Counted from the first letter of the stretch, positions 29,601 through 38,600 are shown. The stretch is 64,000 bases of DNA from Candidatus Gottesmanbacteria bacterium (GCA_963711735.1 CAVQFA010000005.1:7525-71524), one strand, 5' to 3'. Made by a program: numbers and translations. Notes: generated by a model not told the origin, from the sequence alone.

Positions 29601-32600
29601 GGTTGAGCCGGTTGCACCTGTCGGACCTGACTGGCCTGTTGCTCCCGTGGAACCTGTCGCACCTGTGGGACCTGATTTTCCTGTTGCTCCCGTGACCCCT
29701 GTTGCACCGGTCGGTCCGGAGAGTCCTGTTGCACCGGTTGAGCCGGTTGCACCTGTCGGACCTGACTGGCCTGTTGCTCCCGTGACCCCGGTTGCACCCG
29801 TGGGACCGGAAAGTCCTGTTGCTCCTGTGGAACCTGTCGCACCTGTGGGACCTGATTTTCCTGTTGCTCCCGTGACCCCTGTTGCACCGGTCGGTCCGGA
29901 GAGTCCTGTTGCACCGGTTGAGCCGGTTGCTCCTGTCGGACCTGACTGGCCTGTTGCTCCCGTGACGCCGGTTGCACCCGTGGGACCTGACTGGCCTGTT
30001 GCTCCTGTTGCTCCGGTAGGTCCGGTAACCCCGGTTGCACCCGTTGTCCCAGTTGCTCCTGTCGGACCCGAGAGTCCTGTTGCACCCGTGGAACCAGTAG
30101 ATCCTGTCGGACCTGATTGACCGGTGGCCCCCGTGACCCCGGTTGCACCCGTGGGACCTGATTGGCCGGTTGCTCCGGTAACTCCGGTTGCTCCTGTGGG
30201 TCCTAATTGGCCTGTTGCTCCCGTTACGCCTGTTGCTCCTGTCGGTCCTGACTGGCCTGTTGCTCCTGTGACTCCGGTTGCGCCTGTTGGTCCTTGTTGT
30301 CCGGTTGCTCCCGTAACTCCGGTTGCTCCTGTTGGACCTGATTTTCCGGTTGCTCCTGTAACTCCCGTTGCACCTGTTGGGCCTGATTGGCCTGTTGCAC
30401 CCGTTGTTCCGGTTGCTCCTGTTGGACCCGAAAGTCCGGTAGCTCCTGTTACTCCTGTTGCTCCTGTCGGACCTGAAAGTCCTGTTGCACCGGTGGAACC
30501 GGTTGCGCCTGTTGGTCCTGACTGGCCGGTTGCACCTGTAACTCCTGTTGCTCCGGTTGGTCCGGAAAGTCCTGTTGCACCGGTGGAACCGGTTGCTCCG
30601 GTTGGACCAGCCTGTCCTGTTGCTCCCGTTGCTCCGGTAGGTCCGGTAATTCCGGTTGCTCCCGTGACTCCTGTTGCACCCGTGGGACCGGAAAGTCCTG
30701 TTGCTCCCGTGGAACCTGTCGCACCTGTGGGACCTGATTTTCCTGTTGCTCCCGTGACCCCTGTTGCACCAGTCGGTCCAGAGAGTCCTGTTGCACCGGT
30801 TGAGCCGGTTGCTCCCGTGGGACCTGACTGGCCTGTTGCTCCTGTTGCTCCGGTAGGTCCGGTAACCCGGTTGCACCCGTTGTCCCAGTTGCTCCTGTTG
30901 GACCTGAGAGTCCTGTTGCTCCCGTGACTCCTGTTGCTCCAGTTGGTCCTGGAGTCCTGTTGCACCTGTGGATCCAGTGGATCCTGTCGGACCTGCCTGG
31001 CCTGTTGCTCCTGTGACTCCTGTTGCTCCGGTTGGTCCTGAGAGTCCTGTTGCACCTGTGGACCCGGTTGCTCCTGTGGGTCCTGTTGTCCGGTTGCTCC
31101 TGTAACTCCTGTTGCTCCGGTTGGTCCGGAAAGTCCTGTTGCACCTGTGGATCCAGTAGATCCTGTCGGACCTGCCTGGCCTGTTGCTCCGGTTACTCCG
31201 GTTGCTCCCGTCGGTCCTGGAGTCCTGTTGCACCAGTGGATCCAGTAGATCCTGTGGGACCTGCTGGCCTGTTGCTCCCGTGACCCCGGTTGCACCCGTG
31301 GGACCGGAAAGTCCTGTTGCTCCTGTGGAACCTGTCGCACCTGTGGGACCTGATTTTCCTGTTGCTCCCGTGACCCCGGTTGCACCGGTCGGTCCGGAAA
31401 GTCCTGTTGCACCGGTTGATCCGGTTGCTCCCGTGGGACCTGACTGGCCTGTTGCTCCTGTTGCTCCGGTAGGTCCGGTAACCCCGGTTGCACCCGTTGT
31501 CCCAGTTGCTCCTGTTGGACCTGAGAGTCCTGTTGCTCCCGTGACTCCTGTTGCTCCAGTTGGTCCTGAGAGTCCTGTTGCACCTGTGGATCCAGTGGAT
31601 CCTGTCGGACCTGCCTGGCCTGTTGCTCCTGTGACTCCTGTTGCTCCGGTTGGTCCTGAGAGTCCTGTTGCACCAGTGGACCCGGTTGCTCCTGTGGGTC
31701 CTGTTGTCCGGTTGCTCCTGTAACTCCTGTTGCTCCGGTTGGTCCGGAAAGTCCTGTTGCACCTGTGGATCCAGTAGATCCTGTCGGACCTGCCTGGCCT
31801 GTTGCTCCGGTTACTCCAGTTGCTCCCGTCGGTCCTGAGAGTCCTGTTGCACCAGTGGATCCAGTAGATCCTGTGGGACCTGCCTGGCCTGTTGCTCCCG
31901 TTACTCCTGTTGCTCCTGTCGGACCTGAAAGTCCTGTTGCACCTGTAGAGCCTGTCGCACCTGTGGGACCTGATTTTCCTGTTGCTCCCGTGACCCCTGT
32001 TGCACCGGTCGGTCCAGAGAGTCCTGTTGCACCGGTTGAGCCGGTTGCTCCCGTTGGTCCTTGTTGTCCGGTTGCTCCCGTTACTCCTGTTGCTCCTGTT
32101 GGTCCACTTTGACCGGTTGCTCCCGTTACTCCGGTTGCACCTGTGGGACCTGCCTGGCCTGTTGCTCCTGTGGAACCTGTTGCTCCTGTGGGTCCTGAGA
32201 GTCCTGTTGCTCCTGTGGATCCAGTGGGTCCGGTAATTCCAGTTGCACCCGTTGTTCCTGTTGCTCCTGTTGGTCCTGAAAGTCCTGTTGCACCGGTGGA
32301 ACCGGTTGCACCTGTGGGACCTGCTTGGCCTGTTGCTCCCGTGACTCCTGTTGCTCCGGTTGGTCCTGCCTGGCCTGTTGCTCCTGTTACTCCGGTTGCT
32401 CCGGTTGGTCCTGCCTGGCCTGTTACTCCGGTTGCTCCTGTGGGACCTGCCTGGCCTGTTGCTCCTGTGACTCCTGTTGCTCCGGTTGGTCCTGAGAGTC
32501 CTGTTGCACCAGTGGACCCGGTTGCTCCTGTGGGTCCTGTTGTCCGGTTGCTCCTGTAACTCCTGTTGCTCCGGTTGGTCCGGAAAGTCCTGTTGCACCT

Positions 32601-35600: not shown

Positions 35601-38600
35601 CTGATTCTCCGGTTGCTCCTGTGGATCCGGTTGATCCGGTAGGTCCGGGGAGACCTGTTGCTCCTGTTGCTCCTGTCGGTCCTGATTCTCCTGTTGCTCC
35701 GGTTGATCCTGTCGGACCGGACTCACCGGTTGCACCTGTGGATCCAGTTGATCCTGTCGGACCGGACTCACCGGTTGCACCTGTTGCACCTGTTGATCCT
35801 GTCGGACCGGACTCTCCTGTTGCTCCTGTGGATCCTGTGGGTCCGGACTCTCCTGTTGCTCCTGTGGATCCTGTGGGTCCTGGACTCTCCTGTTGCACCT
35901 GTTGATCCTGTAGGTCCTGACTCTCCTGTTGCTCCTGTGGAGCCTGTGGGTCCGGACTCTCCTGTTGCTCCTGTTGATCCTGTTGGTCCTGATTCTCCTG
36001 TTGATCCTGTGGCACCGGTTGATCCTGTCGGTCCTGACTCTCCTGTTGCTCCTGTTGATCCTGTCGGTCCTGACTCTCCTGTTGCTCCTGTCGATCCTGT
36101 TGGTCCGGACTCTCCGGTTGCTCCTGTTGATCCTGTGGCACCTGTTGCTCCTGTCGGTCCTGATGAACCCTGAACTCCTGTTGCTCCTGTTGCACCTGTC
36201 GGACCGGAAGCACCTGTTGCTCCGGTTGATCCCGTCGCTCCTGAAGATCCGGTCGGTCCGGATGCTCCTTGTTCTCCTGTTGCTCCTGTAGCTCCTGTCG
36301 GTCCTGATGCTCCTTGTTCTCCTGTTGCTCCTGTTGATCCTGTCGGTCCTGATTCTCCTGTTGCTCCTGTTGATCCTGTTGCTCCTGTAGGACCTGACTC
36401 TCCTGTTGCACCTGTTGCTCCTGTTGATCCTGTGGGACCGGATGCACCCTGAACACCTGTTGCTCCGGATGCTCCTGTGGGCCCGACCGTTCCGGTCGCT
36501 CCTGTGGCTCCTGTTGCTCCGGTTGGACCTTCCTGACCTGTAGCTCCTGTTGATCCTGTAGCTCCTGTTGGTCCTGACTCTCCTGTTGCTCCGGTTGATC
36601 CAGTGGATCCTGTTGGTCCTGACTCTCCTGTTGCTCCGGTTGATCCTGTCGGTCCTGACTCTCCTGTTGCACCTGTTGATCCTGTCGGTCCTGACTCTCC
36701 TGTTGCTCCTGTCGATCCTGTTGGTCCGGACTCACCGGTTGCTCCTGTTGATCCTGTGGCACCTGTTGCACCTGTCGGACCGGATGAACCCTGAACTCCT
36801 GTTGCTCCTGTTGCACCTGTCGGACCGGAAGCACCTGTTTCTCCTGTTGATCCCGTCGCTCCTGTAGATCCGGTCGGTCCGGATGCTCCTTGTTCTCCTG
36901 TTGCTCCTGAAGATCCTGTCGGTCCGGATGCTCCTTGTTCTCCTGTTGCTCCTGTTGATCCCGTCGGTCCTGATTCTCCTGTTGCTCCTGTTGATCCTGT
37001 TGCTCCGGTAGGACCTGACTCTCCTGTTGCTCCTGTTGCTCCTGTTGATCCTGTGGGACCGGATGCACCCTGAACACCTGTTGCTCCGGATGCTCCTGTG
37101 GGCCCGACCGTTCCGGTCGCTCCTGTGGCTCCCGTTGCTCCGGTTGGACCTTCCTGACCTGTAGTTCCTGTTGATCCAGTAGATCCTGTTGGTCCTGACT
37201 CTCCTGTTGCTCCGGTTGATCCAGTGGATCCTGTTGGTCCTGACTCTCCTGTTGCTCCGGTTGACCCTGTAGAGCCGGTGGGACCGGATGAGCCCTGAAC
37301 TCCCGTTGATCCTGTCGATCCTGTGGGTCCGGACTCACCGGTTGCTCCTGTTGCACCGGTTGTTCCGGTGGGTCCGGACTCACCGGTTGCTCCTGTTGAT
37401 CCTGTCGATCCTGTGGGTCCGGACTCACCGGTTGCTCCTGTTGATCCTGTGGCACCTGTTGCACCTGTCGGACCGGATGAACCCTGAACTCCCGTTGCTC
37501 CTGATGCACCTGTCGGACCGGAAGCACCTGTTTCTCCGGTTGATCCCGTCGCTCCTGATGCACCTGTCGGACCGGATGAACCCTGAACACCTGTGGCTCC
37601 TGATGCACCTGTCGGACCGGAAGCTCCTTGTTCACCAGTTGCACCTGTTGACCCTGTCGGTCCTGATTCTCCTGTTGCTCCTGAGGCTCCTGTCGGACCG
37701 GAAGCTCCTTGTTCACCAGTTGCACCTGTTGACCCAGTAGGACCTGATTGTCCAGTTACTCCTGTTGGTCCAGTTTCGCCTGTTGCACCTGTCGCACCCG
37801 TAGCTCCCGTCGCTCCTGTCGGACCTAAATCACCCGTCGCTCCTGTCGGACCGGAAGCGCCTGTTTCTCCTGTAGCACCCGTGGAACCCGTCCCTCCCGT
37901 CGCTCCTGTTGGTCCTGATGCGCCTGTTTCTCCTGTAGCACCCGTGGAACCCGTCCCTCCTGTTGCTCCTGTCGGACCTAAATCACCCGTCGCTCCTGTC
38001 GGACCGGAAGCGCCTGTTTCTCCTGTAGCACCCGTGGAACCCGTCCCTCCCGTCGCTCCTGTTGGTCCTGATGCGCCTATTCCTCCCGTCGCACCCGTTG
38101 CTCCCGTCGCACCTGTTGCTCCTGTCGGACCTAAATCACCTGTTGCTCCTGTCGGACCGGATGCACCAGTTTCACCTGTTGCACCTGTAGAACCACTAGC
38201 GCCTGAAGCTCCTGTCGGACCTAAATCTCCCGTCGCACCCGTTGCTCCCGTCGCACCTGTTGCTCCTGTCGGACCTAAATCACCTGTTGCTCCTGTCGGA
38301 CCGGATGCACCTGTTTCTCCCGTAGCACCCGTGGAACCTGTTCCTCCGGTTGCTCCTGTTGGTCCTGATGCGCCTTGTTCTCCCGTCGCACCCGTTGCTC
38401 CCGTCGCACCCGTTGCTCCTGTCGGACCTAAATCACCGGTTGCTCCTGTTGGTCCTGATGCGCCCGTTTCTCCCGTAGCTCCCGTAGCCCCTGTGGATCC
38501 TGTAGGTCCGGATAGTCCTGTTTCTCCGGTTGCACCAGTTGAACCCGTAGGACCGGTTTCGCCCGTTGCACCTGTGGAACCTGTAGACCCTGTTGGTCCG

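Follow-up and report, generated by a model that had tools for sequence, protein, structure and literature searches.

Whether a reading frame that changes nine times along one gene is broken in the organism or only in its assembly is the question raised by a giant collagen-like surface-protein gene in the DNA of Candidatus Gottesmanbacteria bacterium (GCA_963711735.1 CAVQFA010000005.1:7525-71524; 64,000 nucleotides, referred to below as the window). The original prediction had described a cluster of +/-1 frame changes within this gene and had offered sequencing error or decay of the repeat array as the cause, without choosing between them. Walking along the glycine codons bore out the cluster and resolved it into nine sites between 35890 and 30861. 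We consider it likely that all nine are consensus errors of a long-read assembly and not features of the organism's DNA.

Organization of the collagen-like gene

The G+C content of the window was approximately 45%, except for a 15-kb block at 59-63% that corresponded to the Gly-X-Y part of the giant gene. The gene was composed of the following parts:

20649..40708, minus strand: whole collagen-like surface-protein gene, from the ATG at 40708 to the stop at 20649, 20,060 nt as assembled
39194..40708, minus strand: N-terminal non-collagen part (1.5 kb), with a short SAM-like segment, a transmembrane helix, and an orphan domain
24813..39193, minus strand: Gly-X-Y array of 1,599 consecutive triplets (14.4 kb), Pfam PF01391 Collagen
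20649..24812, minus strand: C-terminal non-collagen domain of 1,390 codons (4.2 kb), open and in frame with the last collagen segment

The translation of 39193-37394 matched PF01391 with 283 bits (cut-off, 27.2; E = 3e-86), and the array segment between the third and fourth frame breaks described below matched it with 152 bits. When 8 nt were restored and 1 nt was removed at the nine breaks, the repaired gene amounted to 20,067 nt, that is, 6,688 codons and a stop. The true gene is most likely this single open reading frame (ORF), whose membrane-anchored product of 6,688 aa would have ~4,800 residues in its collagen-like stalk and would include the 1,390-aa C-terminal domain.

Nine frame breaks in the Gly-X-Y array

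The phase of the array was checked by following its Gly codons in 9-nt steps along the minus strand. Exactly ten irregular units were found among the 1,599 triplets, nine of which changed the frame and one of which was in frame. The nine were 1-nt insertions or deletions (indels), consisting of one insertion and eight deletions, and the walk detected no frame change elsewhere in the 14.4-kb array, outside 30861-35890. Taken as coordinate mod 3 of the first codon base, the frame along the successive segments was 1, 0, 1, 2, 0, 1, 2, 0, 1, and 2; the collagen frame therefore occupied all three frames, as had been proposed. The Gly-X-Y periodicity remained perfect within every shifted segment when read in its own frame, and each of these segments still matched PF01391. 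The breaks, the stop codon behind the first of them, and the in-frame irregular unit were as follows:

35881..35890, minus strand: site 1, GGAGAGTCCA, a 10-nt unit, +1
35768..35770, minus strand: stop codon in the N-terminal frame, 39 codons past site 1, closing a 1,646-aa ORF
35027..35034, minus strand: site 2, GGTCTCCC, an 8-nt unit, -1 (C4 to C3); intact GGTCTCCCCGG eight times elsewhere
32879..32884, minus strand: in-frame irregular unit, GGTATA (G-I then G), 3 nt short, frame unchanged
32538..32545, minus strand: site 3, GGACAACA, -1, within a 349-nt exact repeat
31702..31709, minus strand: site 4, GGACAACA, -1, the same unit as site 3 in a 100% identical context
31262..31269, minus strand: site 5, GGCCAGCA, -1; intact forms GGCCAGGCA (11 copies) and GGCCAGTCA (26 copies)
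31218..31225, minus strand: site 6, GGACTCCA, -1; intact forms GGACTCTCA (9 copies) and GGACTCTCC (21 copies)
31084..31091, minus strand: site 7, GGACAACA, -1, a third copy of the unit of sites 3 and 4 in a 99.3% identical context
30950..30957, minus strand: site 8, GGACTCCA, -1, the same change as site 6 in an 89.6% identical context
30861..30868, minus strand: site 9, GGGTTACC, -1 (G4 to G3); intact GGGGTTACC present twice

The compensated pair that had been placed about 840 bp apart corresponded to the changes at 35885 and 35030. The two compensated each other arithmetically, at a spacing of 855 nt; however, translation was not rescued, because the incoming frame meets the stop codon at 35768-35770 between both sites. 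The ORF at 35768..40708, which this stop closes, ended in Arg-rich text as claimed, and the further changes announced below 32535 were present and numbered six. All three sense frames of 24800-39300 (minus strand) were nearly free of stops, with 19, 20, and 34 stops per 14.5 kb, and ORF finders thus list wrong-frame Arg-rich or Gln-rich ORFs of 1,300-2,600 codons across the collagen gene.

To define the anatomy of the breaks, each site was aligned to its paralogous units and the copies of each motif were counted in the same gene, with GGACAA[T/G]CAGGACCC, GGACTCTCAGGACC, GGTCTCCCCGGCCC, and ACCGGGGTTACC as examples of the intact forms of the affected units. Every broken unit differed by 1 nt from a form common in the remainder of the gene. 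The broken GGTCTCCCGG occurred once and the intact GGTCTCCCCGG eight times; the hybrid GAGTCCAGG occurred once and GAGTC[A/C]GG 41 times; GGACTCCAGG was present in two copies and GGACTCTC[A/C]GG in 30; and the shortened Gln triplets were present in four copies, as against 54 copies of intact GG.CA[AG].C.GG. The unit at site 1 was a hybrid between GAGTCC (23 copies) and GAGTCA (18 copies), which are the two common variants. The three pairs of strings on which the observation had first been based were all recovered: GGTAACCCGGTTG at 30861 versus GGTAACCCCGGTTG at 31477 and 30024, CCTGGAGTCC at 30948 and 31216 versus CCTGAGAGTCC at nine places, and CTGCTGGCC at 31261 versus CTGCCTGGCC at eleven. 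A systematic miscall specific to certain motifs was rejected as the cause, because each motif is intact more often than it is broken.

Repeated units and the case for real mutations

Three of the deletions (32541, 31705, and 31087) were identical, and their 150-nt contexts were 100, 100, and 99.3% identical. They lay in a longer repeated segment, and the 3' third of the collagen array held a second, tandem repeat:

32443..32791, minus strand: repeated segment of 349 nt, with an exact copy at 31607-31955 and a 96% identical copy at 30982-31326; the same deletion in all three
24900..28514, minus strand: tandem array of ~14 units of 261 nt (87 aa), ~97% identical, forming the 3' third of the collagen array

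These repeats are where a history of real mutation could be read. Some or all of the indels would then belong to a giant gene inactivated very recently, either an early-stage pseudogene or a frameshifted allele common within the population: the lesion at 35885 would truncate the protein to 1,646 aa, the deletion-bearing unit would have been duplicated twice, and further deletions would have accumulated. The presence of the same deletion in three 99-100% identical 349-nt units, whose offsets of 836 and 618 nt correspond to 93 and 69 triplets less the deletions, is consistent with a single mutation propagated by unit duplication. The confinement of the changes to one 5-kb part while a more repetitive part is clean, and the fact that most sites are not long homopolymers, also speak for real indels.

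We nevertheless regard real inactivation as unlikely, in view of the state of the rest of the gene. Bacterial pseudogenes usually show an excess of substitutions. With that excess, approximately ten or more Gly losses would be expected here; a gene with six to nine frameshifts fixed under relaxed selection should also bear many substitutions, of which about two ninths would fall on Gly codons. Nine frameshifts were instead accompanied by no Gly codon lost by substitution (0 of 1,599) and by no stop in the 1,390-codon C-terminal domain. The gene thus resembles a decaying pseudogene in its several interruptions of the reading frame, but differs in having no substitution lesion, in-frame stop, or larger deletion, only the 1-nt indels and one in-frame change of 3 nt, and in its intact terminal domains.

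Position of the breaks within the repeat unit

All nine indels fell in the variable triplet directly before a Gly-Pro-Thr (GPT) triplet, a class comprising 333 of the 1,599 triplets. The probability of this by chance was p = 7e-7, or p = 8e-5 if only six of the events are independent. The pre-GPT triplet is where the repeat units differ from each other (GES, GLS, GQS, GQA, GKS, GLP, and others), and real mutations would have no cause to strike only this triplet (p < 1e-4). The indels might still be both real and non-random if a deletion-biased process acted on the hypervariable pre-GPT triplet and unit duplication amplified the frameshifted unit, switching off or remodelling a collagen-like adhesin of 6,700 residues in a Gottesmanbacteria population; we consider this decidedly improbable.

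This position was more telling than the sequence type to which the changes had originally been assigned. Short homopolymers or repeats had been named for all of them, which was only partly correct; a change in homopolymer length was found at only two to four of the nine sites. No slippery heptamer of the form X XXY YYZ was present at the nine sites, and the longest run there was 4 nt.

The absence of such signals bears on whether the breaks could be crossed by recoding, that is, by programmed ribosomal frameshifting, transcriptional slippage, or slipped-strand phase variation. Large surface proteins are among the typical targets of phase variation, and with all three sense frames long and nearly stop-free a shifted ribosome would not always be halted at once. 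Like contingency loci and programmed frameshift sites, this gene shows +/-1 changes in a surface-protein gene, but it has nine sites and not one, and lacks a long simple-sequence tract, a slippery heptamer, any homopolymer of more than 4 nt at the sites, and conservation. A stop follows 39 codons past site 1, nine successive events would leave essentially no full-length product, the shifts are absent from the straight ORFs of relatives, and the same motifs are often intact in the same gene. Recoding was therefore rejected as extremely improbable.

Frame breaks in the flanking genes and comparison with a second assembly

Frame breaks were also found outside the collagen gene:

43772..43776, plus strand: leuS frame break, 4 nt (gtca) where >60 relatives have one codon in EPFPxFYAHGLVIKDGAKMSKSKGN
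4318..4364, minus strand: frame break in a membrane-protein gene, relative to the intact neighbouring paralogue; the interval has an A7 run (T7 at 4345-4351 on the plus strand)

The >60 relatives were uninterrupted through ...DFDEPFPxFYAHGLVIKDGAKMSKSKGN..., and the window had one extra base, which split leuS into ORFs 41830-43827 and 43760-44536. For the membrane-protein gene, the intact paralogue at 6448-4805 matched ORF 4802-3948 with residues 41-149 and ORF 4354-3098 with residues 165-544. The contig thus carries indel errors outside the collagen gene, in leuS and in the membrane-protein paralogue, and the break in the essential leuS on the same contig argues against real indels in the collagen gene.

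Contigs of the Logan run ERR12037368 contained ArgRS, pilin, and SAM-like ORF sequences identical to those of the window, which suggests that they are an independent assembly of the same population, with a presumed link to the window's assembly. The comparison rested on gene calls and covered the non-repeat flanks, as the Logan contigs reach only 110-300 nt into the array on either side. On a 12-kb Logan contig, leuS was continuous across the window's break at 43772-43776 and was joined to comEA as a single product of 1,158 aa that occupied exactly the same 3,477 nt; this fusion indicates a second indel in 44476-44533, where the window has the canonical LeuRS C-terminus. A further break in the Logan contig, at a TAGTG near 40253, interrupted the N-terminal domain of the collagen gene, which is continuous at this point in the window. 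There were accordingly three indel disagreements between the two assemblies in ~5 kb of non-repeat DNA, which is the behaviour of noisy long reads, and such disagreement between two assemblies of the population speaks against real indels.

Exact-pattern scans of metagenome_contigs for the leuS break and for the thrice-repeated collagen break, each with an optional base, returned nothing. Exact-product look-ups gave no match for the 1,646-aa ORF, the leuS fragment, comEA, the 149-aa internal ORF, the broken paralogue fragment, two GT2 genes, lepA, or the epimerase.

The homologous gene in relatives

A collagen-like gene that is divergent from and adjoins leuS was found in many Gottesmanbacteria metagenome-assembled genomes (MAGs). 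In these relatives, the SAM-like N-terminus, the array, and a C-terminus homologous to window 22133-20652 were encoded as one ORF in loci L013 (1,945 aa), L050 (2,983 aa), and L024 (2,587 aa), and L052 and L055 likewise had a single uninterrupted ORF with N-terminus, array, and C-terminus. The uninterrupted ORFs of relatives again disfavour real indels in the window.

The occurrence of frame shifts followed the type of assembly. In the short-read-type MAGs there were no out-of-frame shifts in ~47 kb of collagen-coding DNA (five in-frame irregularities and 13 runs of N), whereas the Nanopore MFD MAGs L005 and L006 had four in 16 kb. If both types had the same shift rate, the Poisson probability that the short-read set would show none was 4e-4, a comparison to be read with the shorter arrays of that set and their interruption by N gaps in mind. 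MFD MAGs are Nanopore-only assemblies that received one round of Medaka polishing (PMC12313526). The window appears to stem from a long-read, probably Nanopore, MAG, presumably of the same type of origin.

Several further observations were made on these loci. In L005 (reverse-complement offsets ~21543-21607), two phase changes lay 57 nt apart within the collagen array, and L006 (~19305-19330 and ~19770) had a 'compensated' pair of phase changes ~440 nt apart. Runs of exactly 100 N inside the collagen arrays of L001, L002, L009, L010, L012, L019, L021, L048, and L052 mimicked frame changes across 105-115-nt gaps; a conserved frame change across gaps of 107-115 nt in relatives was rejected, the gaps being these runs of 100 N. 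The conserved leuS-adjoining gene, with SAM-like domain and membrane anchor, was present in the window and in loci L001-L024, L043, L050, L052, and L055. The repaired window protein, at 6,688 aa, was far longer than the products of relatives' genes from short-read assemblies.

Origin of the frame breaks

Residual errors in long-read assemblies are single-base indels, mostly deletions. As in Nanopore consensus errors of this kind, the indels of the window are mostly deletions, flanking and essential genes are split, assemblies disagree, and shifts occur in relatives' Nanopore MAGs but are absent from the short-read MAGs. The collagen gene differs from that pattern in that the sites are mostly not long homopolymers and are concentrated in 5 kb where the repeat units differ, and this concentration would point to mixed read placement rather than to plain homopolymer miscalling. 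Reads from near-identical repeat units would be hard to place within the collagen gene, a mixed pile-up would form at the variable x-y triplet before each G-P-T, where the units differ, and the polisher would then drop or double one base at the ambiguous triplet. Such a mechanism would be compatible with the bias in position, with the hybrid found at site 1, and with the recurrence of the same call in units that are identical.

Of the two causes named in the original prediction, error is thus well supported: leuS and a membrane-protein paralogue are broken on the same contig, an independent assembly disagrees on indels in non-repeat DNA, the gene shows no substitution or other damage and its intact motif forms are far commoner than the broken ones, all nine indels lie in the pre-GPT variable triplet with a hybrid at site 1, and relatives keep one ORF, with out-of-frame shifts seen in long-read assemblies only. 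Decay is poorly supported, given the 1,599 Gly codons and the intact 1,390-codon C-terminal domain. The case for consensus error is circumstantial.

Some points weigh against an origin by consensus error. There were ~2 breaks in 44 kb of flanks as against nine in the 14.4-kb array, seven of them within 1.7 kb, and a density so far above that of the flanks calls for a local cause. The 261-nt tandem array (25.3-29.8 kb), the most repetitive part of the gene, was without any gap or frame change, which contradicts a simple model in which more repetition brings more errors and leaves repetitiveness alone as no predictor of them; the 261-nt units may differ only by substitutions, so that mixing would create no indels. 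The three identical deletions in 99-100% identical units are equally explained by a real deletion followed by unit duplication. Classical homopolymer miscalls would apply at only two to four sites, and the platform of ERR12037368, like its link to the window's assembly, is presumed.

Terminal domains and gene context

Neither terminal domain of the collagen-like protein matched a curated family. The N-terminal part showed 47% identity with the L043 ORF, and a comparison of the N-terminal domain with 5.8 billion proteins returned no homologue. The last ~500 aa of the C-terminal domain were conserved in relatives; for this domain nothing was above threshold in Pfam, NCBIfam, or PDB, and the weak sub-threshold matches were to CBM_4_9 (E = 0.013) and the Bdellovibrio fibre protein bd2133 (E = 0.059). 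The C-terminal 530 aa (window 20652-22241) had homologues in Patescibacteria with 30-38% identity and E down to 1e-60, some of which bear Collagen, Peptidase_S74, Peptidase_G2, bactofilin, or intein Pfam domains. Judged from these domains, the region may be a fibre-tip or trimerisation module.

Bacterial collagen-like proteins of family PF01391 include Scl1 and Scl2 of Streptococcus and BclA of Bacillus. The window protein shares with them an uninterrupted Gly-X-Y region rich in Thr at Y, non-collagen ends, and a membrane-anchored or surface location (here predicted). It differs in the length of its array (~4,800 residues, roughly ten-fold or more longer), in its SAM-like N-terminus with a transmembrane helix, in its 1,390-aa C-terminus without a curated family, and in its location next to leuS.

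The SAM-like domain (phage-integrase N-terminal) was encoded in the window by a separate 171-aa ORF (40713-41228), which ends 5 nt before the collagen ATG. This domain was fused to the collagen protein in L013, L024, L050, L052, and L055, and was separate in L043, L053, L026, and the Logan contig. We did not retain the idea that a frameshift separates the collagen ORF from the SAM-like ORF (41228-40713), because the two-ORF layout is shared by L043, L053, L026, and Logan.

The genes flanking the collagen gene included leuS, argS, lepA, comEA/comEC, three pilin-like genes, and many glycosyltransferases; the closest LeuRS matches were 60-64% identical. The gene content and these matches assign the window to Candidatus Gottesmanbacteria (Patescibacteria). 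The three tandem pilin-like genes (18300-20448), which have an N-terminal methylation motif, adjoin the 3' end of the collagen gene and are convergent with it, and relatives also had similar pilin genes near the collagen gene. A TAG at 46356-46358 separated comEC (45459-47405) into two ORFs of one frame, of which one bears the Competence domain and the other the metallo-beta-lactamase domain; the Logan assembly likewise had two gene calls for comEC. The tandem paralogous membrane-protein genes (3098-6448) encode ~550 aa each and had no family match. ORFs 62843-63379 and 63298-63948, on the same strand in different frames, overlap by 82 nt around a G5 run and had no family match; this overlap may be a third frame break in the flanks.

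Implications

The observation of a frame-changing collagen gene was correct, but it was most probably the observation of an assembly artefact, and the repaired giant gene is a separate matter. In its assembled form, the locus would enter annotation as a pseudogene or be broken up into several ORFs without meaning, and wrong-frame Arg-rich and Gln-rich 'proteins' are open here for >1,000 codons. The pattern provides a flag for long-read MAG catalogues that needs no reads: suspicion is warranted when the lesions of a repeat gene consist solely of +/-1 indels at the places where its units differ. If the indels were real, they would record the recent loss or variation of a giant adhesin, which would be moderately interesting; if they were real and non-random, they would represent variation of a repeat-array surface protein independent of long simple-sequence tracts. 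Treating the breaks as errors restores a 6,688-aa collagen-like surface protein that is conserved next to leuS in Gottesmanbacteria. At the rise of the collagen triple helix, 0.29 nm per residue, its collagen-like stalk could be over a micrometre long.

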